A DNA stretch of 64,000 nt, taken from the NCBI GenBank assembly GCA_964570065.1, contig CAZMVZ010000001.1, forward strand, positions 41,652 through 105,651, given 5' to 3'. The translations under genes and the position numbers were made by a program. This stretch comes from an uncultured Candidatus Poseidoniales archaeon. GTDB lineage: Archaea > Thermoplasmatota > Poseidoniia > Poseidoniales > Thalassarchaeaceae. This document shows positions 5,030 through 62,815 of the stretch, in pieces. Numbering within the stretch: the stretch's first letter is position 1; each line of letters begins with the position of its first letter. Below the pieces are notes generated by a model. It had not been told where the DNA came from, made no database searches, and saw only the letters and a program-made list of their open reading frames with translations.

Positions 5030-5092
5030 GTTATGGCAATTGAACTCTTTCCACCACTATTGAACCCATTCCAGAGTCGGTCATGTTGGGCA

Positions 5093-5695: not shown

Positions 5696-5716
5696 CCATT
5701 CAATGGTTTCCCAACC

Positions 5717-6868: not shown

Positions 6869-6903
6869 CCAGTGCTCAGCCAAATCACTTCTCGGGGGCC
6901 TGT

Positions 6904-18032: not shown

Positions 18033-18107
18033 TCTGCAAATGTACGAACGACGCTCCATTCTTCTTAAGACCCAAAGTTAGCGGCCTACAAAACGAGACT
18101 GGCATCT

Positions 18108-37002: not shown

Positions 37003-37080
37003 TGAAAAATAGCACCAATCTATGGGTTATCTTTCCAATCCGTTCTACGAACGGTTAAAACAAGCGTTTTGGTCGGCGCG

Positions 37081-46000: not shown

Positions 46001-47001
46001 TAACTTTCGACTTAGGCCTGACCGATTCAGACCTTACTGAACAAATCAGTGTTCGCGTGGTTCCGGCCAATGTCGGTGTTGCACATCACTTCCCAGATGG
46101 TCACTTGGTCCTAATCAAGATGTCAACCGATCAAGGATATTCAACCCAAGTAGAATTGGGGGTGGATGTTCCAGAATACAACGGAATTGAACTCAATGAA
46201 CCAGAAAACCTGTTCTTCAGCAGAGAGGACACCACCATTACGATTAATATTCCATTCAAGAACACTGGTAACTCAGACGAGTTGTTCTACTTCGAATTCG
46301 ACAGTTCAGAGTGGTGGCAATTCGCTGGACCTACAACCCAACCGGCATCCCCATTCTCCGATGGTTCCGCCACCTTCACACTAGTCAGGCCCTCTGAACC
46401 GGAACTGCCTTCCCCCTATGCCGAAGAAATCACATTCACTGTTTCGGATCAGGACAACAATACTTACTCGGGCTCAACTATGGTGGAGACAGACTCGCCA
46501 GTTCTCTCCATAGTGGGAGATACGGCAAGGATCCTCGGAGGCAATAAATTCGCTTCTTATGGCCAAATAGAGAGTTATTCCGTGAATATCTCCAACAGCG
46601 GGAATGTGGATGCTGAGGCTGTCATCTTAGTGGCTACTCTGTGTTCCGACATTCTTTGTGAAAATGAGCTAGGCGTCAACTCCACTTCCAGTGGCTCAGT
46701 GTCAGCAATGAGCGAATCAACATTCTACATCAACATGGACTACACCCAGTTTACCGAGTCCAAGAATTATTGGATAATGTTCTCAATAGAGGGTGAATTG
46801 ATAGATGGAAAGTCAGAGCCTTGCAGCTTGACATTGAAGTCAGATGGAAAGGCATCCTGCGTCTTCGAGGCTCAGCTATGGACCAGCTCCGAAGAGAATG
46901 ACGATCTGAAGTACTTGGCATACGCATTCCTGATAATGCTAATTGCAGCACTTCTTTACTTTACTAGAAGGCCGGGTAGACGAGTCAGCGCCCCGTTCTA
47001 A
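37081..47001 (+). CDS. aglB: Giant AglB/STT3-type oligosaccharyltransferase fusion (~3300 aa)
   Basis: STT3 first-loop motif DPWYMKR…FDHDRAYPAGG…PPLF, TIxE (TIGE) motif, WWDYG catalytic motif, an Arg-containing last TM, then ~2300 extracellular residues with an acidic D-x-D-x-D-G cluster and a terminal TM + RRPGRR tail. Domains are listed in the separate finding. ATG at 37081 (the track's 37069 is a TTG). Confidence 0.85.
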   Translation: MLSHWQIGPVDGMEQEKDTLQVVQFNNLAAPVAITLALLGLTIVASTLEGREVGGDFLYTAILISLSVLIPACIGRSSWLIPLDSGSLRVGAITLAVSLIGIIANSADPENFNHMFVATFVFVGFASAALNESERFEESATLLSIVLGMRLAAFYAGGLIIAQSDSLAVIDTVREAIGAAFFSFWLSSISLGFLVMVGLRGAIENRGKGNLMANLPNIRENPEVGIYASLVFASFLVPLIWISQIDSLQDFSQQNHIGLAWASFSALVIFIHAFFRAEGWHVLGALLAVNWILYSIGHIHEIGNELPSLFSEDGFIGSFTWFFLWFWMTFFTLFFASRGVFGDIAPRRERSGFRVWWDVNSYVVMVTLAFLIALIVRTAWNVIPAMNANGTGLWDMTGGSDPWYMKRVVDYVIAERSHLIFDHDRAYPAGGINPRPPLFSWSLALGGLALSWILEIPADQAVWWSMSALPAVYGALIVLPIAGIASRAHSRRAGIIAAWLIALMPGHMSRSTFAMSDHDSFAMLFLAIAFYYWIRAIGHIDHNRIFKSTSTNPLYIIAGMRETWKRNPSLMANASMAGIAFSIMALGWKGFVYGPGILFLAYSFQVAINIFKGRDSLQFTSAALQMMLVAILIPTPFYAWPGMNLLFAPSGMQPMFYIIGFTFAMGWVSSSFRDKPWLLVVLGGSALFGSILALLYILQVRDLFNGWDILFTGGFYFSKNKIFGTIGEAQAPERGVLFASYGPIVALIAIGCAFLLLWRGSRKNKSDLTLLGLWTIIATYMAWSAGRFIINATPVVAVVGGIGISMLWGSASLPAFTKVWRNSGIGTPRTRFKSLWPATKARPGVPAMVMVLLLITSQHATYGIDAGIPRGDQSANEIDQSLYDIVPDILRQDLLGLFSVMNSDTYDQSDSGLWYMGTFGPSFNSQGWNEAYDWLSQQDSETPFSDRPAFVSWWDYGFQALASGQHPTVADNFQSGIPNSGAMLLSGGQEDTLSLFITTLAMGDKSINNGQLGESFLSVLEGHMTPEQVQEFEAITSNTNKGFVQDRLMAVVAEYGDAELLQGEPLDSNGLTCPDPCSDTYVVLVNGEPFGEATTNSSEAMVIFDQARGSSSEFELAEFDDASHYDMAGYRYTRDIIDDYDDLSTALHRTNARFGLARAFLITAFSLDDLVQIYDGISSIDTYEVSDYEESHGSTTSRNHEIRYFAVDNRLYPLGGMYYQDYQSYHRGQTTGIFHAPTHLSGLDIDSYITTTYETNQGDHTPEEFQSTYLEDLKAQASGASTAEDMIQMTDMNYQHLDSFFETMIARTYVGYGTSTLGLPSISGQVGDADTPSTWILPNSITGTPGSYLQGAMALPGAMMNHFVLSNWYDPTNGTSCEEIQITGSASTVAGSSQLSDVSLYSDDSLSSGWSQIQSGGPWKMSQVEEGVIPMNASTTNYDPDEETLSITSAASSSANDTEFTLTGKVDKYCGSIYDSNRNVKILKYYSGATLQGTVSLEGVGPVPNARILIERDAFSGDESADEDGNVVDNDSRTYWIPIGSTQADEDGHFSFTAPAGKIRVSAFTGDPDLDAARTSLLSGSANLMSELFSETSQNRAVNPVTGILGNVYGSTWLSETIVNISGSDGHSNGQSVIEAPISVSPSTASGILSWSGELDFDGDPVLSANITLTPSSEEVAIQPYEVITSDGGMVGEDLRFSGTGEVTFLGEGTMESMGAVSVYDFTGTHTQAVFDNHSITGEGQFSGKGMIDGTLSGDFPDCSGHSVPEGSDACINEDGYYLLEGIANGSGKFTSHGVSEFTRELSQATFIGSGNFATSPSDDLATFGTINGTGIFSGHGSFSGSMVRPGSFHIVDALPGEYVVSVDFGTGDPVVIPQPFVIPLSSSEIQTPVSITGGAIKGTVSIFTGRPLSSEVSIFSINGSSEDSNEQCQGVITQPCFVTPDESGSFEVGPIVPGSYIAEVDIDDDGFPEISHAFAFESGLASLVSFPSEVPQTSDITFTLSDDGTSVDDLQLQFIPEDLSRSEVTVMFDNESKTYHAELNPGNWILNYTLSDEKQLWQRISIGSIDVSDSFEFLVSQVVSGVVIDSVKGDEISDPLLSRVTNQEVLFQWQGFTLKSVTDSFGEFSVILPQGAFVHATVERMVGAGGFFSNGTSFQVTDSMENITIQLTDSTMVLGEVSLNREGNTYNQGFSGWTPVFAKANNLDGTTDAVWREEVDDLGRFDMLLPLGNWSFTLEAGSEMAANAVVKEINTTSEPMVELLVLPTNITVEIDFFIDHLGDNNASNGTPVSYPFEIKPLSPNGAGYTVPRDGSEWTQTGLAEVSLEPGRYRIVVERANSSADDPFDTLYDTNDIFEVEIGSSTVKRSVGFEPRWLVNITFRNESGQLLDNHEVKLENVENGWIQTYMTNEDGVLVEYIEEGDWIVIVDEFETNSGVYEGLRRSISTSQSSAGSRSNFQTAELALVTVTLQSTSDVAAPELVDLTISSQEGLGSFVSSIGGFDQPLEIRLVPGFWNVEINQTNQDGIMTLLENSSLVESGVTVGPNHQVFLTVQKLVSLSGKVFWDLDDDGAPGFSEGLSNASVNITGDLDSPTHHLISDNDGVWSTFLPVQSSWNITVEREGFGTQTSPVQIGETSVTENIEISAGEVEISGSISYPDQTCISSGEWQVQMIPSHGISRERVTVPGNALGEWSAMIQPGSWVAMATSTSEASECIDLISIEPLEVGVDGGSVESELTVGGTLRLETSWLDFDGSAHDLTEVEDYDLVIEYGPISWSEELGSDGVLNLLIMPGTVQASSTFELNEGVRNVSYSGGKGISIRAGQVSPMNTLSIDRVSKQSVTTTVQGLDRVEVQEVDTTCTNDDDGDGVINGEDAFPTDPTESSDNDNDGKGDNQDPDDDNDGDLDDDDEFPLGQGLPTNSAEGCKYQNAAFNVSVEYEGHNSFDEYTVVGTVPSADGVDWSVQFQNSSGEWLDSLTFDLGLTDSDLTEQISVRVVPANVGVAHHFPDGHLVLIKMSTDQGYSTQVELGVDVPEYNGIELNEPENLFFSREDTTITINIPFKNTGNSDELFYFEFDSSEWWQFAGPTTQPASPFSDGSATFTLVRPSEPELPSPYAEEITFTVSDQDNNTYSGSTMVETDSPVLSIVGDTARILGGNKFASYGQIESYSVNISNSGNVDAEAVILVATLCSDILCENELGVNSTSSGSVSAMSESTFYINMDYTQFTESKNYWIMFSIEGELIDGKSEPCSLTLKSDGKASCVFEAQLWTSSEENDDLKYLAYAFLIMLIAALLYFTRRPGRRVSAPF

Positions 47002-47022
47002 TACTACTTGCCTCAGCGCACA

Positions 47023-48279
47023 ATGGGGACAAACATGCGTGGAATCTCACGTCTCGAATTGATGCCTGAACCTGGAGACCCTAGTCTACTTACAGCCGTA
47101 GACAGTGATGCACCCGGCTATCCAGGAGAGGCCTATGGCATCAGTGACGAAGAGGCTAGGAAGCTAAGGTGGCCAATGGGGCCACTTATGAGGTTCTTAT
47201 GGCCTTGGGGAGCAGTCGGATTCTCCGCAATAGTTGTCTCTATTTTGCTCCTATATCCCTCGATATACTCACTTATTGGCGAGGTTCTTGATTCGGAGTG
47301 GGCCTTCGAAGATAGCGGCATCAGGGATCTACAGGAATCTGGAAGCCTAGGTGAAGGAGTCAGAGTATGTATGGTTGACACCGGAATAGACATCTCTCAT
47401 CCAGACCTATCGCATCTAACATTATCTGGATTTCGTGACTTCTATAGCGAAAAAGACTCTCCAGTCAGAGACATCGGAACAAATAGTCACGGAACTTTGA
47501 TGGCGGGACTTCTTGCTGCCAATGGCTCATTCACTGGTGCTTCCCCAAGCGTTTCACTTTCGATTGCGATTTCTCTCGGGCCAGACGGAAAGTCTGCAAA
47601 TGAGAGGATGGTCTCCCAAGCGATTAGGTGGTGCCGCATTTCTCAGGAATCTGACATAATTTCTCTAAGTCTGGGAACTGCTCCCGGATCTAGCTTCTCA
47701 GCTTCATCTGACACCCTTGATGCCGTAAGAGAGGCATTAGGCGATGGGATTTTCGTAATCGCAGCCGCTGGAAATAGTGACCCAAGGCAGAACCTCTCCG
47801 ACGTCTCTTCCCCTGCTAGTCTATCTGGTGTGATTGCAGTTGGGGCACATGATAGAAATGGGGATCCGTGGGTTGACAGTGCTGAAGGTGCCAAAAACGA
47901 TCCAGAAACTGGTGAGGAACGAATATTTCCCAACCAGAAACCCGAGATCGTAGCCCCCGGTGTCGATCTATGGTCTTGCAGAGACAGTGGCCGTGACCCG
48001 CCATACGCATTCTCAACCGGTACCAGTGATTCTACGGTATTGGTTACAGGGGCCCTCGCCTTGATCCTCTCAGTGTATCGTGAGGAAATTGCGGGAGAAA
48101 ACGGAATCATCGACCAACATGAAATGGACTTAGTCAAGGTAGCGCTTGCAAACTCGGCACGAACCGACTCAAGCCAATCTGAAAGCCACGATTCGAAGAA
48201 AGGATACGGTCTCCTTGATGCCCAAGAATGGTCTAGACAAGTAGAAATTGAATTCGGTATCAACCAAGAAAACATATGA
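47023..48279 (+). CDS. Membrane-anchored subtilisin-like serine protease (S8 family)
   Basis: Catalytic triad motifs VCMVDTGID (Asp), HGTLMAGLLAANG (His), GTSDSTVLVTGALAL (Ser). N-terminal TM helix. The ATG lies 22 nt after the aglB-fusion stop. Confidence 0.85.
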   Translation: MGTNMRGISRLELMPEPGDPSLLTAVDSDAPGYPGEAYGISDEEARKLRWPMGPLMRFLWPWGAVGFSAIVVSILLLYPSIYSLIGEVLDSEWAFEDSGIRDLQESGSLGEGVRVCMVDTGIDISHPDLSHLTLSGFRDFYSEKDSPVRDIGTNSHGTLMAGLLAANGSFTGASPSVSLSIAISLGPDGKSANERMVSQAIRWCRISQESDIISLSLGTAPGSSFSASSDTLDAVREALGDGIFVIAAAGNSDPRQNLSDVSSPASLSGVIAVGAHDRNGDPWVDSAEGAKNDPETGEERIFPNQKPEIVAPGVDLWSCRDSGRDPPYAFSTGTSDSTVLVTGALALILSVYREEIAGENGIIDQHEMDLVKVALANSARTDSSQSESHDSKKGYGLLDAQEWSRQVEIEFGINQENI

Positions 48280-48345
48280 ATTGACGATAATTGACGAAAC
48301 TCCTTGTCCCTATGGTTAAATTGTCTAGATGTAGTCCGATGGATT

Positions 48346-51300
48346 ATGGCGCGGGAAGAAAAATTGAGGTCATTCTCATTAACAGGACTATTCTTGTTGA
48401 GCATATTACTTTCATTGGCCTTGCCAGCAGGTACTGTTTCCGCATCAAACGAGACAACAACGGGGACAATTACCGGTACTGAGACTTGGGCAGGCGTACA
48501 CACCCTTACCGGAGATGTCACGATAGCCCCCGGTGCAAAATTGATCATTAATCCAGGGGCGACGATTGAGTTCCCCAACGGAACCCATCTGGATGTACGG
48601 GGGAGCCTGTGCGCCGGCGTCTCTTCATGTGGTGCTTCTTCGAACGCTGGGCCTGCAATGAGAATAACCCTGAGGTGGAGTGAACCCCTCAATTCGAGTG
48701 CTATAGGGGAATGCTATGGAATGAGTTCTGGCAACCAAGAAATATGGATAGATGACCCTTCATGCAGCGAGGGCGTGCTAATGAGGAGTTCGATAGATCT
48801 TTCTGAAACAGGCCTCAGATATGTCACATTCGATAGTGCTTGGGGGATTCCTCAGTATGTCTCTGCAGTGGGCGAATTCCGATATGGGGCCCTAGTTCTA
48901 GATGGAGCTAGCCCAACTCTTACCGAACTTTCTTTCAATCAGATAAACACCTCCAGTGTCCTGACAACCAACCTCGCTCAACCAACTTTCAATGGGGGGG
49001 AATTCGTCGTAGGGGCCGATGCGAGTAGGGGCATCGTTGGAGCAGCATTGCAGATTTACTCCTCTGGATCCTCAGTAAGCCCATTCTCTCTGTCTGATAT
49101 TTCACTCACAGGAACTGACAATGGATGCGGTAATAGAGATGGGGGGAGGCACACAATTTGGGCCGAGGACTCATTTATCGAGATAGATAACGCTGAAATC
49201 TCATCAGGAGATTTTGGAATCGGGCTTTGGACATCAGCAGGAAGCGTGACAAACACTCAGATAAATGTGAACTGTAACGGAATCGATCTAAATGGAAAGA
49301 AGGCAGTAGGCGGGACTTCATTCGATTTCGATATCTCTAACAATGAAATTACTACGGCCGACGGAGCAGGAGTTTTTGCATCAGCCGGGGCACTAGTGTA
49401 CTTGGTTGACAACGATATTGGTGGAGCAGCATCTGGTTCCGGAATAGCTGTTTACAATAGCGAGGCCCACATTCACGAAAACGAAATTGGACCAATAGGG
49501 GGCTACTTTGGATTGTGGCTGGGTGGCTCGTACGACGTAATCGCTGAGAATAACTCGATTTTCGACACCACCCTAACCCCAGTGGTTGCTGGGATGTACT
49601 CATACGCCATTCAAGCAGCCTCTAGGCTATACCTAGCAAACAACTCAATCTCCTATGATGGTACTGGGACCTGCAGTAGTGAAACCAATTGGGGGGGAGA
49701 TTTTTCTTGTCCAGTCTTGCATGCATACGTGACAGGCGTAACCATGTATGACAACATCATCACTGCGGGTGGTACAGCCGATGGGATTCGAGCAGTGGGG
49801 TCTCTGTTGGATATTCAGAGGAACTCATTTGATGTGCAAAAGACTGGTGCTGTGATCAAGAACTACGACAGCGGTTATGCCGAATCCCAGCAATTCGGGT
49901 CACTAGCATACTTCTCTGAAAACGACTGGAACCAGGCCGAGACAGTGTACAACGTGACAAAAAGCTCCGTTACTGCCCAGTCAGAGTACATACCCTCACC
50001 TCCCAGCGGGGAATACCCAGTCCGCCTATCATGGCCAGACCAGGAGGCTTGGCCAGACAATGAATTCCAAGGTGCGATTATCCCAACACCAGTAAAGGAC
50101 TGCAACAATTGCCAGAACATGACGCCGAGGAACTTCCCATTGGGTGTCAGCATGGATAACAACTCAACGGTATTTACATTTGCAGATTTGACGAACCTGG
50201 ACTTGTCCAAGGTCAAGATTGCAACACAGCCAACCCACTTCGCAGTACAGGTCAGCAGAGCCGAACTCGTCCGATTCCAGGCACTAATTGGCGGTGAAAA
50301 GGTAAGCGATGCATTGGTCATTGTGGAGGATGCACTCGGTAACGACCTGTATCGTGTAAAAACTGGTGGCGATGGTTTCACTCCATGGGTCGCCCTCCCA
50401 TCTAACTTTCACCTCGACTTCAGAGGACTTGGAGGAGGAGATAACCCGGATGGGTTTGCGGATGATGAGTACGAGGACTCTTGTTCAGACGGGATTGACA
50501 ACGATGGCGATCTTACCATCGACATCGCAGATTCCAGTTGTGATTATTCTGCAGGAACTAGGGAACTATCACTTTACAGATATACTGCCTATAGATTTGG
50601 ATATGGCTACTACTCCGGGCAGTTCACCCTTGAGGAGAACTCGCTCGAGGAGACTGCACACCTTGAGAACGAAGCTCCAACGGTGATAGTTACCGAGAAT
50701 GATGGACACTCATTCAGAAGAGTGGTCAACATCACTGGAAGCGCTCACGACGGGACATTGGCAAACAGTTACCTGACTGACGAGAGGGCCCAGTGGGACC
50801 AAGGTGGCTATGTTCATGCCGTCCAAGTGAGGAACCCATTCACCGGTTCTTGGGAGGATGCCGAATTGGCGATTGATACTAGCGGTGCAGATGAGGGCGA
50901 GGTGACACGCTTCAACAGGCCTTTCAGCTCGTGGTACTACAATATTGACATGACGGGACTCGCAGGTGAAGGCGATTTCACATTCGAATTCAGGGCATTT
51001 GATGGGATAGATCACAGCCCTGTCGTTTCACGAACAATCAAACTCAATACTCAACCCCCCAGCATTTTCGTTACCACACCCAGCTCATTCTCATCTCATG
51101 ATGAGGGTTCGGTAGTCTTCGATGGCTATTCCCAGGATCCCTACGGATGTCCGGACAATTGCAACACCGACATTGGTCTAGTATACATGCAGATTTCGGG
51201 ACCAAATTACCAAGTTACTAGCCCAGTTGAGACTAATTCCGATGGAACTTGGGATTGGGAGTGGGACTTCAGCACCCGGCCCAGGGAACTTACGACTTAC

Positions 51301-52608
51301 ACCTTCACAATTTGGGCATCTGATTCAGATTTTTGTAATGGAGAAGTGGACGAGTGCCAGCCAGTAGTTCTGACCCTAACAATCGATAACAGGAATAGCC
51401 AACCCACAATTAGCGTCAATCAGCCATTTTCAGGAACAAGAATTTCCTCCTCATTGGATACTGCTCTAACCGGGGTGGCTAGGGACTTCGACGGAGGGGT
51501 TACAAGGGTAGATCTGGAAGTAAAGGACGTATCAAATGACTATGTTTCAGTTTTCGAAACCAGCACCAGTGAATTTTCTGAAGATGGAATCTGGGAGATT
51601 GAGTGGGACACGACACAACTTCGTCATGATGCGGAATATCTGCTAAGATTCCGCTCGTATGACGGAATTGACTACAGCAGCTGGACCGAAGTAACCATTG
51701 TGGCCGACAATCCACCAAATGCAGGGAATAATCAACCCGAATTCGATTCATCCGGCTGGCAAAGTGAAATCACTCTTTATTGTGACTCAGAATCAAACTC
51801 TGTCGACAAGTGCACCACAGTGGAGATAGATCTGAAGGAGTTTTTCTCCGACGCAGACAACGACATACAGTTCATCTCCGTTTACAACGACACATCAATC
51901 GACTCGGACGATAGGCACGCTCTTGTCGTCGGTGTCGGAACAGATGGAATTGCTCGTTACGACCCCGCAGACATGTTGTTTTTCGACGATGACATGGAGT
52001 CTTGGACTCTGAATAATGTGATTTTCATCGCCACCGATGCATGGGATTCTCGAATCAACTCAGATCCTGTCAACTTCAGAGTCGTCCCCCTTCAGTTCAC
52101 GATTCAGGAGCCCGAGCAGTCTTGGGTCGAAGAAGATGAAATGGCAATATATTCCGGCATCGGACTTCCCGGTAAGCAAGTTTCTGTTTTGATAGATGGT
52201 AATCCAGTCAACAACACAATTGTCTCTGAAGACGGAACATGGGAGTTGGGTATACCGGCCTCTAGGATTAAGGGAGACTCATCAATACCAAAATTCACTT
52301 ATGCAGGCCAAACCACAGAAGTTAGCGCGATAAGCAAGGGAGAGCCAACGCCTGAATCAACAAACTGGGGAACGATTGGAGCAGTTTCTGTTTTGGCCAT
52401 ACTGTCACTGGCTGCTCTTGCTTACTTCACTGGATTCATAGGAATTGAGATTGATGAAGAAGATGAGTACAAGACCCCTGCCCAAATACCGAAGAACTAC
52501 GGTGACGAGGAAGAAGAGAGTTCTCTGGAGAGGTATGATGACCACCCCGGTTGGCTTTGGGATGCAGCTTCCGAGGAATGGGTCCCAGATCCGGATTTCG
52601 AAGAATAA
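48346..52608 (+). CDS. Large surface protein (~1420 aa) with right-handed parallel beta-helix (PbH1) repeats, Ig-like domains, C-terminal TM anchor and acidic tail
   Basis: Signal peptide (LTGLFLLSILLSLALPAGTVSA), repeated NN-I/GG beta-helix rungs (…ISNNEITTADGAGVFASAGALVYLVDNDIGG…), C-terminal TM (VSVLAILSLAALAYFTGFIGI), and tail IDEEDEYKTPAQIP…DPDFEE. Confidence 0.8.
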   Translation: MAREEKLRSFSLTGLFLLSILLSLALPAGTVSASNETTTGTITGTETWAGVHTLTGDVTIAPGAKLIINPGATIEFPNGTHLDVRGSLCAGVSSCGASSNAGPAMRITLRWSEPLNSSAIGECYGMSSGNQEIWIDDPSCSEGVLMRSSIDLSETGLRYVTFDSAWGIPQYVSAVGEFRYGALVLDGASPTLTELSFNQINTSSVLTTNLAQPTFNGGEFVVGADASRGIVGAALQIYSSGSSVSPFSLSDISLTGTDNGCGNRDGGRHTIWAEDSFIEIDNAEISSGDFGIGLWTSAGSVTNTQINVNCNGIDLNGKKAVGGTSFDFDISNNEITTADGAGVFASAGALVYLVDNDIGGAASGSGIAVYNSEAHIHENEIGPIGGYFGLWLGGSYDVIAENNSIFDTTLTPVVAGMYSYAIQAASRLYLANNSISYDGTGTCSSETNWGGDFSCPVLHAYVTGVTMYDNIITAGGTADGIRAVGSLLDIQRNSFDVQKTGAVIKNYDSGYAESQQFGSLAYFSENDWNQAETVYNVTKSSVTAQSEYIPSPPSGEYPVRLSWPDQEAWPDNEFQGAIIPTPVKDCNNCQNMTPRNFPLGVSMDNNSTVFTFADLTNLDLSKVKIATQPTHFAVQVSRAELVRFQALIGGEKVSDALVIVEDALGNDLYRVKTGGDGFTPWVALPSNFHLDFRGLGGGDNPDGFADDEYEDSCSDGIDNDGDLTIDIADSSCDYSAGTRELSLYRYTAYRFGYGYYSGQFTLEENSLEETAHLENEAPTVIVTENDGHSFRRVVNITGSAHDGTLANSYLTDERAQWDQGGYVHAVQVRNPFTGSWEDAELAIDTSGADEGEVTRFNRPFSSWYYNIDMTGLAGEGDFTFEFRAFDGIDHSPVVSRTIKLNTQPPSIFVTTPSSFSSHDEGSVVFDGYSQDPYGCPDNCNTDIGLVYMQISGPNYQVTSPVETNSDGTWDWEWDFSTRPRELTTYTFTIWASDSDFCNGEVDECQPVVLTLTIDNRNSQPTISVNQPFSGTRISSSLDTALTGVARDFDGGVTRVDLEVKDVSNDYVSVFETSTSEFSEDGIWEIEWDTTQLRHDAEYLLRFRSYDGIDYSSWTEVTIVADNPPNAGNNQPEFDSSGWQSEITLYCDSESNSVDKCTTVEIDLKEFFSDADNDIQFISVYNDTSIDSDDRHALVVGVGTDGIARYDPADMLFFDDDMESWTLNNVIFIATDAWDSRINSDPVNFRVVPLQFTIQEPEQSWVEEDEMAIYSGIGLPGKQVSVLIDGNPVNNTIVSEDGTWELGIPASRIKGDSSIPKFTYAGQTTEVSAISKGEPTPESTNWGTIGAVSVLAILSLAALAYFTGFIGIEIDEEDEYKTPAQIPKNYGDEEEESSLERYDDHPGWLWDAASEEWVPDPDFEE

Positions 52609-52663: not shown

Positions 52664-55192
52664 ATGGCAACGAGTGCTTCATCACGTCCAGGAGTTCAGG
52701 AGAGGATTTTCCTTCACCTTAGTGACTACGTAGACCATAGTGACAAGGTCGAAGTCCCATTTGCATTGTCCCAGATGGGGATAGCCAACGCTGTGTCAAT
52801 CGCTCGCTCTAATGTGCCTCGTGCAATTTCTGGAATGAAGGAGGAAGGACATCTGATCGAAAGACAGGCACATGTAACTGGGGTATCTCGGAAAAGGAAG
52901 GCATACTTCCTCACTGATGAGGGAGCCAAGGTTGCAGACGAGATATGGGCAAGGGTTTCAGAGACAAATGTCAGGGTAGTCTTCTCCGACGGTCGTTCTG
53001 AGAATACATCCCTGGCCGAAGCAATCGAGTCCTCAGTCCTACCTCTAAGGCATGTCGATATGCTGAGATATATGGATGATTCCGGCACTATCGACCTATC
53101 GGGACTGACTCCCGAGTTGGTCGAGAGAGATCTATCGAAACACATTGAGAAGCAGTTAGTTTCGTATCTGAACGACCTTCCAAGAACAAGAAGATTCTAT
53201 GGGAGGGAAAAGGAACTAGATGTGATGGCAAATCTCCTGGAAGCCAATTCCGCTTCTATCCTTGTTCCAGGAATAGCCGGAATCGGAAAGACCTCTCTTT
53301 CGACAAAAATACTCGACAGATTCACTCACAGGAGAAATCTGCTCTATCATCGGTGCCAGGATTGGGAGGGTTCCCGAGCATTCCTCGAGGCATGCGCAGA
53401 ATGGCTCTCTGCGGTGGGAAATAACGACCTTTCTGACTATCTTGCGTCATCACCAGTACCACAAACGAACATGGCCGTCAATCTAATCGCTGACGGTTTG
53501 TCTGAAGCTCCATCTTTGATAGTAATAGACGATCTGCATAAGGTTGGTGATGAAACCCTTTACTCCATTCTCAGGGAACTTACTCTTAGGATAAACACAC
53601 TGAAGGAAGTTGGGCTAGTAATGTTCTCGCGTTCCTTCAGGATGGTAGTCCCAGAATCTGACCAGTCGGGGAATATCGTAACCCTAGTAATGCCCCTTCA
53701 AGGATTGGATGCCGAGTCAAGTAGGCAGATTCTGACAGCAATGCCAAAAATGGATTCGGACCAGTTCACTCACATATATTCTCTATCTAGGGGCCACCCA
53801 CTGATTCTAGAGTTGATCAATAGAGGAAATGTGGCTGAGACATTCCATGCCACACTGGAGGCCTTCGTTGAAAAGGAGATTTTCAGTAGACTCTCAGGTC
53901 CTGAGAAACGCCTACTAGGTGCCATTGCAGTTTTCCGTGAGCCCATTCCAGTACAGGCAATCCATCAAGCAGAGGGAAGCGTAGACCTACTGGATGACTT
54001 AGTCGAGAAGGGCTTGGCACGACAATCTGATGCTGAGAATTTTGATGTTCACGATCTCGTCCGTGAATTCTTGTTAAGATCGATGGACAAGGAAATGAAG
54101 AACTCCTTACATTCCTCGGCTGTGAATTGGTACAGGGAAAAGAAGGATGATGCTGCAGATCGTATTGAGTTTATCTACCACCTTAGCCATACAGGAGACG
54201 AGGATGGCATTGCCGAGGTCCTAGTTTCGGAGGGCCATGGATTGGTTAGCACCGGTCACACCGAATTACTAAGTATTCTAAATTCTCTCGAAAGCAGTGA
54301 TTTTGATTCCAGTAGCAGAGGCCTAATTAGGGAACTAAAGGGTGATATTCTGACTATCCAAGGTAGGTGGGATGAAGCCGAAGAAGAATACGATGCCGCA
54401 ACAAAACACATTGGCGGAGGTACCCCGGGCCACGAACTTGCCCGCCTGCTTTCAGCAAGGGCAGATATTGCGGTAAAGAGGGGAGCAATGGACGATGCCC
54501 TCGAACTACACCGAAAAGCCCTGGAGATCCAGATAGGCATTAGGGATGCTGTCGGAGCAGCAAGAAGCTACAACAATATGGGGCATATATTCCGTCGAAG
54601 GAGGGACACTCGTAGAGCACTAGAGGTGTATGGGAATGTCGAGAATCTTCTGGAAAAGGAGAAAGACCCAGATCTGAATGACGCTAGAATAAGGCTTGCA
54701 TCGGCCTTCATAGAAATGGGGGAGTTAGACAGGGCAAGGGAGCACGCTCTTTCTGCTTATGAGAATACTAAGGATTCAAACCAAGATTTCACCCATGCTA
54801 GATCAAGAGCAGTCCTAGGGAGGTACTATGCCAAGATCTCAGATAACGACCTTGCACTTTTCCACTACTCCGGGGCCCTGGATACTCTCTCCGACCAAAA
54901 CGACCCCCAAAGTACAGTGGAGGTCGAGATGCTGCTAGGACAGGTGCTAATTGATGCAGGTCGTAGGGAGGAGGCTGCAGAGCACTATCTCAATGGCCTA
55001 GCAGTCGCTGAATCAAACGACTTCCGCATGCTTCAAGGTGAATTACTAGCAAGGCTAGGTGAGGTGGAGTCCGATCGCTCCCAGAGGATGGATTATCTTC
55101 AGAGGTCCCTTTCTCTATTCAGAGACCTAGGCGCTGTAGGGAGGATGAAAGAAGTACAGAATTCAGTCCACAGAGCGGTGATGGGGAGATAG
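52664..55192 (+). CDS. STAND-type regulator: N-terminal winged-HTH, P-loop NTPase (NB-ARC/AAA-like), C-terminal TPR repeats
   Basis: N-terminal wHTH (…PFALSQMGIANAVSIARSNVPRAISGMKEEGHLIE…KRKAYFLTDEG), Walker A ILVPGIAGIGKTSL, Walker B LIVIDDLH, C-terminal TPR-like helical repeats. An AT-rich TATA-like element (tttgtatatt) lies ~25 nt upstream. Confidence 0.8.
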   Translation: MATSASSRPGVQERIFLHLSDYVDHSDKVEVPFALSQMGIANAVSIARSNVPRAISGMKEEGHLIERQAHVTGVSRKRKAYFLTDEGAKVADEIWARVSETNVRVVFSDGRSENTSLAEAIESSVLPLRHVDMLRYMDDSGTIDLSGLTPELVERDLSKHIEKQLVSYLNDLPRTRRFYGREKELDVMANLLEANSASILVPGIAGIGKTSLSTKILDRFTHRRNLLYHRCQDWEGSRAFLEACAEWLSAVGNNDLSDYLASSPVPQTNMAVNLIADGLSEAPSLIVIDDLHKVGDETLYSILRELTLRINTLKEVGLVMFSRSFRMVVPESDQSGNIVTLVMPLQGLDAESSRQILTAMPKMDSDQFTHIYSLSRGHPLILELINRGNVAETFHATLEAFVEKEIFSRLSGPEKRLLGAIAVFREPIPVQAIHQAEGSVDLLDDLVEKGLARQSDAENFDVHDLVREFLLRSMDKEMKNSLHSSAVNWYREKKDDAADRIEFIYHLSHTGDEDGIAEVLVSEGHGLVSTGHTELLSILNSLESSDFDSSSRGLIRELKGDILTIQGRWDEAEEEYDAATKHIGGGTPGHELARLLSARADIAVKRGAMDDALELHRKALEIQIGIRDAVGAARSYNNMGHIFRRRRDTRRALEVYGNVENLLEKEKDPDLNDARIRLASAFIEMGELDRAREHALSAYENTKDSNQDFTHARSRAVLGRYYAKISDNDLALFHYSGALDTLSDQNDPQSTVEVEMLLGQVLIDAGRREEAAEHYLNGLAVAESNDFRMLQGELLARLGEVESDRSQRMDYLQRSLSLFRDLGAVGRMKEVQNSVHRAVMGR

Positions 55193-56053: not shown

Positions 56054-56171
56054 TTATTGCTATTTTCAAACATCAGAAACCATTCTAGGCCCTTCTAATG
56101 ACATATGTCCGAACGACGCTCCATCATCATGATAAATCTCTGAACCCGGGATTTTGCATAGAGGTGGGCGG

Positions 56172-59100
56172 ATGCGTAGGAAGCAAACAGCTTTACTAGT
56201 CACAATGTTGATTTTTTCTAGCCTCGCATTCGTCTCTCAGACTCGTCCACAATCTCCCGTATCCTCCACAGATCCAAATATGGCCGAGGGTGCAGAATCT
56301 CCGGTTACCGACCAAGACGGAGACTTAATGCCCGATCTATTTGAGGTAATTTTTGGAGAATCTGTAGAAATTGAGACTGCAACATTCCAGGGCACCATAC
56401 CCGGCCTCAATCCATCCGATTCTACTGATAATTCAACCGATTACGACAGGGATGGATTAACTGCCCTGCAAGAATACTGCTGGCCTTATACTTTGGATAA
56501 CTGCTTCGAAGAACGCAATACACTAACGGGAAAATCTCCAGAGGAAAGCGAATCTGGATTGAGAGAGTATCTTGACCCCAGATCTTCGGATACCGATGGC
56601 GATGGCTTGCCTGATGGATACGAAGTACACATGTGCACTTTGGGTGGCCTATACAAAAAAGATCCAAATGACCCTTTGAATCCAAACAATTTCTGGGAAT
56701 GCCGATATTTCGATCCACTCGATCCTAGCGATATCAATATCGATTTTGACAGGTGTGAGGCGGACTTCAGTTGGGGTTGCGGGGATGGATTCGATTTCAA
56801 TAGTGATGGGAACATTGACCTTGGAGAAATGTTCACCAATGTGGAGGAATACTCACTGGGAATTCCTGATGACTGGATTACCGAGAGGGACGGACTCTGG
56901 TGCTGGGGTTCAATTCAAGGACTCTCTGAAGACTCGTGTCAGACCCAGTTTGAGAGGCCAACTGGAGAATCAGGATGGATGGGATCTGACCCTAGATTCT
57001 CCGACTCAGACTACTTCTACTGGGATGAAATAGCCCCTGCTCCATTAGATGTATTGGGAGATGGAATTCCTGATGGTTGGGAGGCCCAATATGGGCTGGA
57101 TCCTTTGAATTCCAGCGATGCGATAATTGACAGCGATTTAGATGGATGGGACAAAGACAAGGACGGTTTCATTACGGAGGATGTAACTATAGGGACATCC
57201 CAGTGGGGCGAGTCATTCAGTAATTTCGAAGAGTACTCAGTGGACTTCGATGAAAACTCAGGAGTTATTCCTGGAGTGAGGGGAATTGAGATTTCTTCCG
57301 ATTCCAATAACCTGATTAATTTCGATCATTCAACCGCAATAAGGCTAGTCGACTCTGCCGTACATAGTATAATTTCAGACCAATCAAGAGAGAGGTTGTT
57401 GGTTGGAAGTAAATATGGGATTACGGCATTAGATCCATTCAGAGGAATTTCGACGTCATTTGAATTCCCCCCGGGAATTGAATTACACACAATGGAAAGG
57501 AACTCAGTAGGAAACATAGATTTCCTGATGTTGGGGTCAAATTTGGGCCTACACACGGTAATTCTAGAAAACGGACTCCCAGTTATGGATTCTCTAACTA
57601 CTCATGAACTGGGAGAAGCAACTGTTCTATTTCGACTCGCCTCTGACTCATTTGATCCAGGAATCCTGATTATGGGCAAGGATGGAGTCTGGCGGACGAC
57701 ATTCTCTGAGGATGAACAATCTCTTTCCACTTCTGAAATGATTTTCGTAGAGTCGCTCTCATCAATGCTAAGAAAGTCAAACGCGACAGCAACTTCTGCA
57801 GGGCATGCCAAGATTTTTGGAAGAACACCAATTCTACTAATAGGGACAGATTTCGGCCTAATTGCCTGGAATTCTACAGATGGCTCTGACAACAATGGGA
57901 TGCCATGGTGGGTTTTCACAAGAAATAATGCCGATGAATTCGTTAGCCCAGATATCCTGGACACCACTAAGACTGCAACTGTCAATTCCATAATGGTAGA
58001 AATTTCTGAACAGGGCTCTGACGATGTGTGGTTGGGGATGGGAGGGGGACTCCATCTAATCACAATGGACCTATTTATTTCCCAACCGAAGGAGGCTATC
58101 GGCAACGAGAGAATGCTCAATCTAGAGGGTCTACTAACTGGTGCTAATGATATTCGCTCTATCCTTCCTCTTGAGGGGATGATCGTTCTAGGTTCTTCAG
58201 ACGGAACTTGGTGTCTAGAAGGGAGTTCGGATGGAATTCTGGATATCCGTCAGAACCAGACAGATATCCCCGGTCTGGTTACCTCACTCACTACTCTGGA
58301 AAGAGAAGGTCAAATCTGGGTTTTCGCCGGCGTCTCACCTGGACGATTCATGAATATAGCTCCGATGAACCCACATTCCCATGATTCTGACCTTGATGGG
58401 ATTCCTGACGGTTGGGAGTTCGCATACGGTCTCGACCCAACGGATCCATTTGACGCCTCTAGAGATCATGATGCCGACGGAGTCTCCATCGGCGGTGGCA
58501 GCGGTCCTGGATTCGACAGATTGTGGACTAACTTGGAGGAGTATAGGTTCGTCACTCCCTCGAATTTTGGACAAAACGGAACCGACCCCAGAATTGCAGA
58601 CTCGGACGGAGACGGATTAACTGATGGCGAGGAGTACTGGGGTTGGTTCGTTGACTCAACATCATTCGAGTGCTACTACCTCAATCAGAATTATCTGTGC
58701 GATTCCGGCGTTGGTACATCTGCAGAGGAAGTTCACCTCGGTGGATGGACCGGAACAGGTTCGAGTGGCGGCAGTGATCTACCGACCGATCCGACGAACC
58801 CAGACTCAGATGGAGATGGTATGCCCGATGGATGGGAAATCAAACATCGTCGATGGATTGGAGACATCTACACCGGGGGTAATGAATGGACATTGGACCC
58901 CAATAATCCCAACGATGCTTATGGTGATGCCGATGGAGACGGACTAACCAATCTATGCGAGTATGAGTGGGAAAGACTGCTCGATAGGTCAATTTCCACC
59001 GGTATCATCTCTCATGGTGAATCTCCTGATTCAGTGCAAAATTGGACCCCAACCGATCCAAATTCTGTAGATTCAGATTCGGACTCACTGCCCGATGGTT

Positions 59101-61883
59101 GGGAAGCTCGCTATTCATGCAACTGGCCATCTTCGGATTCAGGAATCAATCCTATGAATGGCTCTGATGCATTGAATAATCCTGATGGGGATGGATTTGA
59201 TGTCAACAAGAACGGGATTATTGAATCCGAAGAAGCATTTGTTAATTGGATGGAATATCATATTAAATCCGACATCTTGCTTTCTGATTCAATATATTCA
59301 GGAACCATGTATCCAGATAATCATACATCATCATTGCCACATCATTCATGGCAAGGTCTGGCTGACGAATCATTCGGAGAAAGAACGGGGGAGTACTACC
59401 TATCTCTGTGGACAGGATTGCCAAACGAAGACATCGGCTCCTCAGATCCGTTAAATTCCGACTCTGATAACGACGGCATGCCTGATGGGTGGGAGGTCTT
59501 CCATGCAAGATGGAGTCTTTTCGATAGTGATTGGACACTCAATCCAGTCAATGGGGGGGATGGTCTTGGAGATCCCGACTTGGATGGGATGTCAAATTGG
59601 GAAGAGTACAATGCAATCGATAGTGATATTAGCGAATCAGACCCTACCATCTCATCGCCCCAGTTCTACCTAACCGATGCTGCCGGGGCTCTCCTCGAGA
59701 CTCCATGGATTGGTGCCGACTCGGCTCTTTCGTTTGGCCATTTTTTGACTGAAGAGCAATCCAATCTGACAGGAACTTCTGCTGACCCTAACAATCCAGA
59801 TACTGACGGAGATGGTTTGCTGGATGGGATTGAAGTGATTTTCACCACTTGGAATTCAAGCGCTGGCGTTTGGACCCTTAATCCACTAATACCCAATCAG
59901 GGTGGTTTCGACTCGGATGGCGATGGTATTGGTGATCTGGTCGAACTAAACCTTACTGCAAACCTCCCTATAAACGGGGAATCTTATCCTATGGGGGCAC
60001 CAACATTTGGCGTAGAATCGAGAGAAATAGATGAGATGGCTTTCGAAAACAGGATATTTAGGATCCTATTCAGTAAAGAAGGAAGGGCCGAGCTAGGAAT
60101 GGAGCAATACTTGGAGTGGAAATCTGGTTTGCCAGCAAAGCCGATGCTCCAGGCAATCTTTGGAATCACGGATCCAAAGGATCAGGATACTGATAGGGAT
60201 GGGATGAGCGATGGATACGAGTACTGGTTCTCGGAGTGGGATCTAGAGGAAAACCAGTGGACGATGAACCCTCTGACTGATTCAGACGTAGATTTCGACT
60301 CCGACGACGACTCATTCGATTGCAACGGAGACGGAGAAATCTCCGACTCTGAATCTTTCGACAATTTGGCAGAGTACGACTCTAGGTGGTATGGGAAGAG
60401 GTTGGAGGTAGGAAACGTCCCAAACGGGACTTCTGCTGTCTCATATGGTGCCGATGCAGCCAATGCCTTCATTGAAGAGGATGGCCTTTCCAATAAATCC
60501 GCATGGGGCCAACTTTACTCTCTGTTCTCATCCAAGAGCCTCAGTTCTTCTGAAAAGATCGGCCTGATCAACCAGGTCGACCCAGACAACTTCAACAAAT
60601 CCCTAATTGGAATCAGTGACCCCACTCACGATGACTCGGATGGAGACGGAATGCCAGATGGTTGGGAATACTGCTACTCAATTTACGACGAGGTCTTACC
60701 AGTCAACTCATTCCGTTGGTCATTAAACCCTCTCAACCCACTTGATGTTAATTATGATCCAGATGCAGATGGTTGGTTGGACAGGGAGATATTAGATACA
60801 CCTGCAGTCCAAGGAAATTGGGATTCCAGAACATTCACACCACTCTCGGAAGACCAGCAATTCGAAAATGGCGCTAGCTCACTTTATTTCACAAATATAA
60901 TGGAATATGATAACGGAACCGGACCATTGGATCCAGATTCAGACTCCGATTCAATTATTATGACCCCAGTCATAGTAGATGGTGTGGTAATTGACTATCG
61001 CCAAGACATGAGTCTATCAGACGGAAGAGAGATGTTCAAGTATGGGACAAATCCACTTGACAATGATTCTGATGGAGACATGATGCCTGACTTCTATGAG
61101 TATTATAGAGGTTGGAATGAGACCAACGATAACTGGTCTTCTTTCATGAAAATCAAAGTTCAGTGGACCGAGGTGACACCCCAGAACTGGAAGCCAATAA
61201 AATTTTCAGACGGTGAGATTACAAGGCCGGATTTGGACTGGATATGGTTTACTCATGATCCAACAGATCCATCGGATGCGACACAAGACGCAGATAATGA
61301 TGGCGAGTGGGACTGTACGGGGAGCAGTTGCGATTACGTCCCATACAACAATTTCCAAGAGTATTACGCAGTTGTCAATGCGACGCTATCTTCACCTTCG
61401 ATTGTCAGGGCTTCAACTTTGTTCGACTGCTCCGGAGAAGAGGTGGAAGAATGGTGGCAACTTCGTGAGACTCTCCTTGGCACCTGTTCAGGTTCAAGCT
61501 CACTATCTTCCAACTATCTGCGAATTAACAAAATCAATGACGACGACTCACTCTATGCTTTGATAGTTCAAGATAATGACTTGACATACTTAGATGTAAA
61601 CTCTAGTGATGATATTATTCATGTCAATGGAGAATGGACGGATGAATTCAACAGGCTCGCAGGAGATAGAAATCACTTGCCAAATCCTGGGCTAGGGGAA
61701 TATGCATTTGGTTGGTGGATTCTAGATATTGATGGAGATTTGGTTGCTGAAGGTACCGACCCAACAAATTGGGATACCGATGGCGATTGGTTGAATGACT
61801 TCTTCGAGATCGACGATGATCTACTTGACGGAATTAGGGGCAATAGCGGTTCACCGATTCGCTACGATGATAGGACTTCATGA
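56172..61883 (+). CDS. Giant secreted protein (~1900 aa) built largely of TSP3/EF-hand-like Ca-binding repeats, no C-terminal TM
   Basis: Signal peptide (LLVTMLIFSSLAFVSQT). About 20 copies of D-x-D-x-D-G-[LMI]-P-D-G-[WY]-E followed by GLDP/NPL spacers. Central beta-propeller-like segment. No hydrophobic C-terminal helix. Confidence 0.85.
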   Translation: MRRKQTALLVTMLIFSSLAFVSQTRPQSPVSSTDPNMAEGAESPVTDQDGDLMPDLFEVIFGESVEIETATFQGTIPGLNPSDSTDNSTDYDRDGLTALQEYCWPYTLDNCFEERNTLTGKSPEESESGLREYLDPRSSDTDGDGLPDGYEVHMCTLGGLYKKDPNDPLNPNNFWECRYFDPLDPSDINIDFDRCEADFSWGCGDGFDFNSDGNIDLGEMFTNVEEYSLGIPDDWITERDGLWCWGSIQGLSEDSCQTQFERPTGESGWMGSDPRFSDSDYFYWDEIAPAPLDVLGDGIPDGWEAQYGLDPLNSSDAIIDSDLDGWDKDKDGFITEDVTIGTSQWGESFSNFEEYSVDFDENSGVIPGVRGIEISSDSNNLINFDHSTAIRLVDSAVHSIISDQSRERLLVGSKYGITALDPFRGISTSFEFPPGIELHTMERNSVGNIDFLMLGSNLGLHTVILENGLPVMDSLTTHELGEATVLFRLASDSFDPGILIMGKDGVWRTTFSEDEQSLSTSEMIFVESLSSMLRKSNATATSAGHAKIFGRTPILLIGTDFGLIAWNSTDGSDNNGMPWWVFTRNNADEFVSPDILDTTKTATVNSIMVEISEQGSDDVWLGMGGGLHLITMDLFISQPKEAIGNERMLNLEGLLTGANDIRSILPLEGMIVLGSSDGTWCLEGSSDGILDIRQNQTDIPGLVTSLTTLEREGQIWVFAGVSPGRFMNIAPMNPHSHDSDLDGIPDGWEFAYGLDPTDPFDASRDHDADGVSIGGGSGPGFDRLWTNLEEYRFVTPSNFGQNGTDPRIADSDGDGLTDGEEYWGWFVDSTSFECYYLNQNYLCDSGVGTSAEEVHLGGWTGTGSSGGSDLPTDPTNPDSDGDGMPDGWEIKHRRWIGDIYTGGNEWTLDPNNPNDAYGDADGDGLTNLCEYEWERLLDRSISTGIISHGESPDSVQNWTPTDPNSVDSDSDSLPDGWEARYSCNWPSSDSGINPMNGSDALNNPDGDGFDVNKNGIIESEEAFVNWMEYHIKSDILLSDSIYSGTMYPDNHTSSLPHHSWQGLADESFGERTGEYYLSLWTGLPNEDIGSSDPLNSDSDNDGMPDGWEVFHARWSLFDSDWTLNPVNGGDGLGDPDLDGMSNWEEYNAIDSDISESDPTISSPQFYLTDAAGALLETPWIGADSALSFGHFLTEEQSNLTGTSADPNNPDTDGDGLLDGIEVIFTTWNSSAGVWTLNPLIPNQGGFDSDGDGIGDLVELNLTANLPINGESYPMGAPTFGVESREIDEMAFENRIFRILFSKEGRAELGMEQYLEWKSGLPAKPMLQAIFGITDPKDQDTDRDGMSDGYEYWFSEWDLEENQWTMNPLTDSDVDFDSDDDSFDCNGDGEISDSESFDNLAEYDSRWYGKRLEVGNVPNGTSAVSYGADAANAFIEEDGLSNKSAWGQLYSLFSSKSLSSSEKIGLINQVDPDNFNKSLIGISDPTHDDSDGDGMPDGWEYCYSIYDEVLPVNSFRWSLNPLNPLDVNYDPDADGWLDREILDTPAVQGNWDSRTFTPLSEDQQFENGASSLYFTNIMEYDNGTGPLDPDSDSDSIIMTPVIVDGVVIDYRQDMSLSDGREMFKYGTNPLDNDSDGDMMPDFYEYYRGWNETNDNWSSFMKIKVQWTEVTPQNWKPIKFSDGEITRPDLDWIWFTHDPTDPSDATQDADNDGEWDCTGSSCDYVPYNNFQEYYAVVNATLSSPSIVRASTLFDCSGEEVEEWWQLRETLLGTCSGSSSLSSNYLRINKINDDDSLYALIVQDNDLTYLDVNSSDDIIHVNGEWTDEFNRLAGDRNHLPNPGLGEYAFGWWILDIDGDLVAEGTDPTNWDTDGDWLNDFFEIDDDLLDGIRGNSGSPIRYDDRTS

Positions 61884-62401
61884 CCTCAACAATTCATTTG
61901 CTTCCTTCTCCTCAGATATTCATGACCGAGGGCACGCGAAACGTTCCCGGGCCCGAAGAACCCGTGAACGAAAAGCTCCTTTTCCTCAGAGAGAACATGG
62001 TTCACTTGACAAATCAACTCAGCATGCCAATAATAGAAGTCGCCCTTGTCATCTCGAAGTACATCCGCATCGTAATGGATTCTCTCCACAAAGCCGCCAC
62101 CGAGGAAGGAGAGGAATTGCCTGACATACTCCTCAATCCACTTCCTAGTAATTCTCCACAGTCTGAAACGACCTCTGGAATTGCTTCATTCCCACTTGAG
62201 AAGTTAATTGACAGAGTCGATCAGGATAGGATGGACATACTGGATACTCTCGTTAGGACAATACTCAATGAGAGCCAATTGGAGTTTGTTTCAGCACTTC
62301 GAGAGTTTAGAGATTGGGAACTCGAAATCCGAAATCAACTATCAGACGTTTCAAGTCCCGGGGGACTGTTTAGCCCACTCTCACTAGATGATGACTTCTA
62401 G
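61880..62401 (+). CDS. Hypothetical cytoplasmic helical protein (173 aa), start overlapping the stop of the upstream giant gene (ATGA)
   Basis: The ATG overlaps the TGA of the 1909-aa ORF. No recognisable motif. Coding-like composition. Confidence 0.5.
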   Translation: MTSTIHLLPSPQIFMTEGTRNVPGPEEPVNEKLLFLRENMVHLTNQLSMPIIEVALVISKYIRIVMDSLHKAATEEGEELPDILLNPLPSNSPQSETTSGIASFPLEKLIDRVDQDRMDILDTLVRTILNESQLEFVSALREFRDWELEIRNQLSDVSSPGGLFSPLSLDDDF

Positions 62402-62730
62402 CCATTCATTGATTCCGAAGATGCTACTATCCCACTGGAAACCCACCAAGCATCTGCTATTGACCAAACGAAAAGAAAAGGCCACAGAAATGCTGGAATT
62501 AGTGGGAACTGAATTAGAAACCACTCACCTGCCTTCCTATGTTGGCGATTGAAATGTTGCCCTAGGAAGAGGAAGGGAACAAGTGAAAGTGACACGGCAA
62601 AGAGTGGACGTATTGCACCCCATGGCCCAACGCCCCCACTCAACTCGTCCCAAATAGTAGAAACCACGCCCAGGGGCCTGGAACCATCGTCTTCTGCAGA
62701 CTCGACTTTGACTACGAACTCCCCTTCCAC
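62398..62730 (-). CDS. Hypothetical small membrane protein (110 aa), tentative
   Basis: Two predicted hydrophobic helices (FAVSLSLVPFLFLG; FPLIPAFLWPFLFVWSIADAWWV). Only ORF-based support; competes with a 69-aa plus-strand ORF. Confidence 0.3.
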   Translation of the reverse strand: MEGEFVVKVESAEDDGSRPLGVVSTIWDELSGGVGPWGAIRPLFAVSLSLVPFLFLGQHFNRQHRKAGEWFLIQFPLIPAFLWPFLFVWSIADAWWVSSGIVASSESMNG

Positions 62731-62815
62731 ATTGCTTGCGATGATTGTAAGCGGATGAATTTGCCGACCAAAATATCATAGAAAACGAGAACAATAGATA
62801 GCGACTGCGAAAACC

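Follow-up and report, generated by a model that had tools for sequence, protein, structure and literature searches.

A stretch of 64,000 nucleotides (nt) from an uncultured Candidatus Poseidoniales (Marine Group II) archaeon of the Thalassarchaeaceae (assembly GCA_964570065.1, contig CAZMVZ010000001.1), referred to below as the window, carries two neighbouring genes on its forward strand. The first, here called the large gene, encodes an acidic protein in which calcium-loop modules of the thrombospondin type 3 (TSP3) kind stand on both sides of a predicted seven-bladed β-propeller. The second, the small gene, follows directly and encodes a short helical protein. Taken as a whole, the evidence makes it fairly probable that the large protein is a calcium-stiffened scaffold at the surface or outside of the cell, and that the small gene is a separate gene for a protein of 159 amino acids (aa). 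The large gene has the following features.

56172..61883, + strand: large gene, acidic secreted-type protein of 1903 aa with TSP3 repeats and a β-propeller, isoelectric point (pI) 4.05.
56161..56166, + strand: Shine-Dalgarno-like GAGGTG, read directly from the sequence, 5 nt upstream of the large-gene ATG.
56172..56243, + strand: signal-peptide-like N-terminal segment MRRKQTALLVTMLIFSSLAFVSQT, with hydrophobic residues 6–24, kept across the family.
56307..57239, + strand: three N-terminal two-loop TSP3-type calcium modules, residues 46–356 (profile domains 46–97, 134–228 and 287–356).
57273..58334, + strand: seven-bladed β-propeller, residues 368–721, from an all-β AlphaFold2 (AF2) model and Foldseek.
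58362..61811, + strand: about ten more TSP3-type modules with unique inserts between them, residues 731–1880 (profile domains 4–15 and the TSP3_bac stretches).
61722..61880, + strand: acidic C-terminal tail without a transmembrane (TM) helix, ending in GNSGSPIRYDDRTS, the best-conserved segment of the protein.

A first-pass annotation of this DNA had described an open reading frame (ORF) of 1909 aa. One long ORF is indeed present, but that length counts from an upstream TTG (56154..61883), and reading from the ATG at nt 56172 gives 1903 aa. The latter is preferred because the orthologues begin with MRRKQTALL and because GAGGTG precedes this ATG by 5 nt. The orthologues are 1890–1940 aa long. 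Ribosome-binding sites of the same type, GGAGG or GAGGTG, precede operon-internal genes elsewhere in the window.

Hydropathy scanning detected a single hydrophobic segment in the large protein, at residues 6–24, and no TM helix at the C-terminus. The AF2 model places a low-confidence helix at residues 3–22. By the same scan, each of the neighbouring proteins of 984, 2986, 3310 and 1434 aa has a C-proximal TM-like segment, which agrees with the earlier remark that the large protein, unlike its neighbours, ends without one.

The D-x-D-x-D-G motif of calcium loops is real: it occurs 18 times in the large protein against 0.34 expected from the shuffled sequence, and nine of the loops have the full form DxDxDGxxDxxE. 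The only Pfam family reported is TSP3_bac (PF18884), which scores 42.9 bits against a cut-off of 25 (E 4e-11) over five stretches, the C-terminal part included. The Pfam models of EF-hand, Dockerin_1 and the eukaryotic TSP_3 gave no match at E ≤ 0.1, and the protein matched no Protein Data Bank (PDB) sequence. The spacing of the loops fits an EF-hand; a helix-loop-helix and an EF-hand Pfam match were not found. The expected family assignment was therefore borne out for the bacterial TSP3 model and not for the other three. In the AF2 model the module regions are largely coil, with short helices only after the loops, as expected for loops wrapped around calcium. The description of a secreted-type, anchor-less protein with TSP3-type calcium loops is supported, at the level of sequence, by the hydropathy scan and the TSP3_bac match.

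A hidden Markov model (HMM) built from seven clear units describes a two-loop module of 55–72 residues. Its pattern is xDPxxxDSDGDGMPDGWE, followed by a Trp-containing spacer that ends in W-T-L-N-P-L, a second DxDxDG loop and then N-x-E-E-Y. This HMM finds 15 domains in the large protein, equivalent to 13–15 two-loop modules, which cover about 750 of the 1903 residues (39%). The earlier statement that the protein is built almost entirely from D-x-D-x-D-G-[LMI]-P-D-G-[WY]-E units therefore holds for the existence of the loops and overstates their extent, since only five units fit the strict pattern and residues 368–721 form a non-repeat domain. The alignment of 46 orthologues is nearly gap-free, with all loop Asp and Gly and many Trp and Cys invariant; in the three N-terminal modules all four residue types are invariant. 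This argues for position-specific modules in a fixed architecture and not for a repeat array that expands and contracts.

The AF2 model was made for residues 1–1200 on the 46 orthologues, with a mean predicted local distance difference test (pLDDT) score of 76.3 and a predicted template modelling (pTM) score of 0.65. In this model, residues 368–721 fold into seven four-stranded blades, the first strands (residues 368–384) closing the last blade. The best Foldseek matches of this part in the PDB are the propellers of the Bacteroides hybrid two-component glycan sensors BT4663 and BT4673 (4a2l, 3ott and 3va6; E 8e-9 to 1e-7), with WD40 propellers close behind. Within the large protein, conservation is lowest in the propeller, with identities of 0.28–0.47 per 50-residue block. 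At the other extreme, mean identity in the family alignment reaches 0.81 at residues 1851–1900, against 0.28–0.73 elsewhere.

A homologue search with the large protein found 465 sequences. Among the 120 listed, collinear orthologues of full length (about 1900 aa) extend down to 41% identity, and all those with a named source belong to Poseidoniales, labelled either hypothetical or "thrombospondin type 3 repeat-containing". As far as these sequences tell, the large gene is most likely specific to the order and vertically inherited within it. The closest relative is the metagenome-assembled genome (MAG) MED-G35 (contig NTJS01000006), with 97% identity in the large protein and 98% in the small one.

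The junction behind the large gene, and the genes that meet there, contain the following.

61880..61883, + strand: ATGA overlap (tcATGAcc) of the large-gene stop with the ATG of a 173-aa ORF, lineage-specific and probably not a functional start.
61891..61903, + strand: conserved non-coding 13-mer AATTCATTTGCTT, a candidate TATA-like promoter element that ends 18 nt before the ATG at 61922.
61922..62401, + strand: small gene, acidic all-helical protein of 159 aa (173 aa if read from 61880).
62398..62730, − strand: convergent gene for a 110-aa protein with two TM-like segments, whose stop overlaps the small-gene stop by 4 nt.

The first-pass annotation had taken the ATGA overlap as translational coupling of the large protein to the 173-aa ORF, which ends at nt 62401 and to which the stretch MTSTIHLLPSPQIF belongs. 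The overlap exists in the window, but its use for coupling finds little support in relatives. Comparison of 28 distinct junction sequences of Thalassarchaeaceae relatives located the in-frame overlapping ATG in only 7, those of the window and of the sequences most closely related to it. In the remaining ones this place is taken by GTG, TTG or CTG, or there are TAA/TAG stops with indels of 1–2 nt that shift the frame. The ATG at nt 61922 is invariant in the same alignment. Nucleotide diversity at codon positions 1/2/3, calculated from a 13-sequence subset without indels, is 0.02/0.00/0.37 in the last 39 codons of the large gene and 0.16/0.11/0.45 in codons 16–100 of the small gene. In codons 2–14 of the 173-aa reading it is 0.14/0.16/0.22, and these codons therefore lack the third-position periodicity of coding sequence.

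Many gene callers likewise choose the second-Met start with 159 aa. This start is favoured by the junction alignment, by the codon-position diversity, by the disorder of residues 1–18 in the AF2 model of the small protein, and by the family alignment, which begins only after residue 15. The functional product is thus most likely the 159-aa protein from nt 61922, and the ATGA overlap most likely a lineage-specific accident. A spacer of 38 nt without a long T-run separates the large-gene stop from this ATG.

The small ORF is well conserved in relatives, as its proposed function had presupposed. A set of 5.8 billion proteins holds 337 homologues, and at least 80 species genomes of Poseidoniales carry the gene, in each case close behind a same-strand gene for a giant secreted protein. 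The labels of 80 species-level genomes with the gene are nearly all Poseidoniales, Marine Group II, Thalassarchaeaceae or Poseidoniaceae. An exhaustive phmmer search of 1.84 billion representatives returned 80 relatives, all short and from marine samples, and no annotated distant family. Conserved motifs are QLSMP.IEV.LV, VD.DRMDILDTLIR and LR.WE, with PG.LFSPL..[PD][DE][DG][FW] at the C-terminus; the conserved core begins near residue 30. The AF2 model (pLDDT 82.8, pTM 0.76) is all-helical. The protein has a pI of 4.3, no signal peptide and no hydrophobic segment at the TM threshold. Profile searches of Pfam, NCBIfam and PDB sequences gave no match, and the best Foldseek hits were not significant (E 1.2 in the PDB, 0.86 in BFVD). 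The small protein is an order-specific helical orphan family with a confident model, most likely a cytoplasmic protein of 159 aa encoded by a conserved gene in its own right.

The gene order around this pair is conserved order-wide. It runs from a β-helix protein through an AAA/TPR protein, a metallo-β-lactamase on the opposite strand, the TSP3 protein and, in some genomes, a protein here called X, to the small gene. The 110-aa gene (opposite strand), pyroglutamyl peptidase, an RNA-binding protein (opposite strand), DnaJ and ribosomal protein S15 follow. An archaeal PF01877 RNA-binding protein and purD are also found in the neighbourhood; together with the STT3/AglB-type oligosaccharyltransferase described below, they are in keeping with an archaeal host. 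At every locus with enough upstream sequence, no more than about 40 nt separate the small gene from the end of an ORF of 1790–1945 aa. In Poseidoniaceae and in one Thalassarchaeaceae clade this ORF is not the TSP3 protein, which lies one gene further upstream, but protein X. Protein X, unrelated and about 1800 aa long, lacks DxDxDG loops; it has a signal peptide and a TM helix at the C-terminus, and is encoded for instance at nt 15818–21244 of locus L087 and nt 2598–7982 of locus L061. In Poseidoniaceae the small gene begins 9–13 nt past the stop of X, with a GAGG, AGGTG or AAGGAG box overlapping that stop. Genomes that carry X also encode a 268-aa secreted HExxH lipoprotein-like protein after the small gene; neither X nor this protein has a counterpart in the window. 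The synteny also spans housekeeping genes, and adjacency is therefore weak evidence that the small and the large gene form a functional pair; the link between their proteins is positional only. Two of the loci with this archaeal neighbourhood, L079 and L083, bear bacterial MAG names (Salipiger bermudensis and Rhodobiaceae), most likely through binning contamination.

Within the 13-mer upstream of nt 61922, the 8-mer core TTCATTTG (nt 61893–61900) is invariant in the 28 distinct junctions and shows no 3-base periodicity. The invariant TTG inside this core was considered as a start codon and rejected as the main reading, since its neighbouring bases do not vary either and it lacks a preceding ribosome-binding site. 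In a leaderless archaeal mRNA, the TATA box is expected where this A/T-rich box lies, centred some 26 nt ahead of the start codon. A related motif, AATTCATCCGCTT, lies on the − strand at nt 62749–62761, with 18 nt between its end and the GTG start codon of the 110-aa gene. The shared 13-mer AATTCATYYGCTT has only two matches in the 64-kb window, each 18 nt before the start of one of the two convergent genes. In relatives, the ATTCAT core upstream of the 110-aa gene is kept at an equal distance, and the gene itself is syntenic in essentially all related loci; its two-TM protein gave no family match. AATTCATYYGCTT may serve both genes as a promoter box or be the site of a regulator, and the shared upstream element suggests a link between the small protein and the convergent two-TM protein. 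The main text of the Marine Group II metatranscriptome paper (PMC5069720) gives no promoter motif.

These observations can be joined into a model. The N-terminal signal-like segment would probably direct the large protein to the Sec pathway. Once exported, the protein would bind calcium from seawater with some 25–30 Asp-rich loops, whose calcium binding is predicted from their sequence. The loops, together with the conserved cysteines and tryptophans, would stiffen the 13–15 modules into a scaffold that carries the seven-bladed propeller, and this propeller, as modelled, is most likely the ligand-binding part. Since no membrane helix is present at the C-terminus, the protein would most likely be held at the cell surface by non-covalent contacts, for which the invariant acidic C-terminal tail is the best candidate site. 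The small gene would begin at nt 61922 behind a promoter-like element in common with the convergent 110-aa gene; transcription of the large gene may also continue into the small one, as no terminator-like T-run lies between the two. A surface or extracellular scaffold agrees with the published reading of the 'thrombospondin' genes widely carried by Poseidoniales as adhesion genes (Rinke et al. 2019, PMC6461757), a remark repeated in PMC8821943.

Several points weigh against this model. Residues 367–743 match no Pfam family at E ≤ 10, Reg_prop included. Glycans are a possible ligand of the propeller only by analogy, because no family match at the level of sequence accompanies the structural likeness. 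The large protein has 21 N-glycosylation sequons where 17 ± 3.6 are expected, which is no enrichment. The element before nt 61922 is a candidate promoter box solely by its place and its conservation; TTCATTTG departs from the canonical archaeal TATA box, and at this position other clades carry different sequences. Moreover, the N-terminal segment might be an uncleaved signal-anchor, which would make the large protein a type II membrane protein. This segment and the following FVSQTRP.SPVSS vary unusually little for a signal peptide that is cleaved, and no clear small-x-small cleavage site stands directly before the conserved stretch. Nevertheless, a signal-anchor is improbable here, as the hydrophobic core measures only about 15–17 residues and a possible cleavage site, SLA|F, is available.

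Alternatively, the large protein could be the main calcium-dependent, S-layer-like envelope protein, with its invariant C-terminal tail tethered to a membrane-anchored partner in the manner of SlaA and SlaB of Sulfolobales. Its order-wide occurrence, fixed length, strong acidity, secretion and lack of an anchor would suit such a role, as would the exceptional conservation of the tail, the anchored giant proteins encoded nearby and the place of protein X right after it in Poseidoniaceae. Archaeal S-layer proteins are usually arrays of immunoglobulin (Ig)-like β-sandwiches. The model instead shows calcium-loop modules and a propeller; S-layer proteins usually diverge faster than the large protein does, and the unenriched sequons count here as well. 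We therefore consider an S-layer-like role unlikely, if slightly less so than the signal-anchor. The first-pass annotation had offered a further possibility, that the small protein, coupled through ATGA, serves as a chaperone or secretion factor dedicated to the large repeat protein. The overlap in the window and its closest relatives, the constant place of the small gene, 0–40 nt after a same-strand gene for a giant secreted protein, and the coupling-type arrangement with an overlapping Shine-Dalgarno box in Poseidoniaceae could be read this way, and the protein is suitably small, acidic and helical. Against this reading stand the lack of conservation of the overlapping start and of a coding signature in codons 2–14, and the replacement of the upstream gene, in Poseidoniaceae and one Thalassarchaeaceae clade, by an unrelated one without TSP3 loops. 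By sequence (Pfam, NCBIfam and PDB profiles) and by fold (Foldseek against the PDB and BFVD) the small protein resembles no chaperone family, its gene has no paralogue next to any other giant gene in the window, and with housekeeping genes sharing the regional synteny its adjacency counts for little. A dedicated chaperone thus appears quite improbable. Less probable still is an arrangement in which the large, the small helical and the 110-aa two-TM proteins form a Poseidoniales-specific envelope module. In it the large protein would be the main calcium-dependent component of the outer envelope, tethered by its invariant C-terminal tail, and the two small ones, with their common upstream element, would be its assembly or tethering factors. 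The calcium-stiffened scaffold with a separate small gene remains the reading that we prefer.

The large protein resembles several known systems in part. Bacterial TSP3_bac proteins such as Myxococcus CglD and MtsD, which are of the extracellular adhesion or cohesion type, have the same DxDxDGxxDxxE loops. The NCBIfam models of these two match the large protein weakly and in the repeat regions only (22.6 bits against an equivalog cut-off of 400, and 21.1 against 800, respectively). The large protein differs from them in its archaeal host, in that no von Willebrand factor A (VWA) domain was detected, and in its individually conserved two-loop modules, Trp-rich spacers and embedded propeller. 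Eukaryotic thrombospondins and COMP have type 3 repeats in which, as in the large protein, calcium loops are interspersed with conserved cysteines in an extracellular, glycoprotein-type setting. Unlike them, the large protein matches neither the TSP_3 model (E ≤ 0.1) nor the sequence of a solved structure, and its sequence gave no sign of the lectin-like C-terminal domain of thrombospondins. The Reg_prop-type propellers of BT4663 and BT4673 share seven blades with that of the large protein, which has a repeated blade signature of hydrophobic-G-x-x-x-G-hydrophobic. Identity is nevertheless only 13–16% with no Pfam Reg_prop match, and the Y_Y_Y domain, TM region and kinase of the sensors are absent. 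The B components of binary toxins (anthrax protective antigen and C2-II) contain loops of almost the same wording, D-x-D-x-D-G-I-P-D-x-x-E; the module profile matches their calcium site through a single loop without significance (E 0.15–1), and the resemblance is one of motif only. With SlaA and SlaB the likeness would be one of analogy, in that a large, secreted and anchor-less protein is encoded in the vicinity of anchored surface proteins. The gene after the large gene here encodes a cytoplasmic helical protein and not a membrane stalk.

Another giant protein in the window, of 2986 aa (nt 18108–27068, + strand), has the same type of module. Its first ~720 residues contain 16 DxDxDG loops (module HMM E 2e-9), and the best blastp alignment with the large protein shows 27% identity over 367 aa (E 2e-8). 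The remainder consists of a transglutaminase core, an MG2-like region of the α-2-macroglobulin type and DUF4129. The shared repeats noticed at first are thus confirmed as modules of one type; true paralogy of the whole proteins was rejected, the likeness being confined to the modules. At 2.6 per 100 residues, the 2986-aa protein has over twice the sequon density of the giant proteins around it.

Other genes upstream deserve mention. A 3310-aa protein (nt 37069–47001, + strand) begins with an STT3/AglB oligosaccharyltransferase region of about 14 TM-like segments and continues for about 2500 more residues with CarboxypepD_reg-like domains and a C-terminal TM helix, an unusually large fusion. 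An S8 subtilase (423 aa) and a 1434-aa right-handed β-helix protein with a C-proximal TM segment are encoded at nt 47008–52608 (+ strand). Lying directly upstream on the same strand, they are part of a conserved run of surface-protein genes. An 842-aa protein (nt 52664–55192, + strand) combines an N-terminal helix-turn-helix (HTH)-like region, an AAA_16 ATPase of the STAND type and TPR repeats. It is always encoded just upstream and is the best-conserved gene product of the neighbourhood, with 96% identity where the TSP3 protein has 94% and 66% where it has 61%. Its conservation and constant place suggest a conserved regulator.

In the surface ocean, Marine Group II archaea rank among the most abundant archaea, and no member has been grown in culture. 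With its order-wide conservation, fixed architecture and likely ligand-binding propeller, the large protein is a concrete candidate for the contact of these cells with particles, algae or each other, and could possibly be employed as an antigen for labelling or as a marker. Current views are not overturned by this, as the 'thrombospondin' adhesion genes of Poseidoniales had already been reported (PMC6461757). The large protein is a well-defined addition to the TSP3-repeat surface proteins, in an important uncultured lineage.

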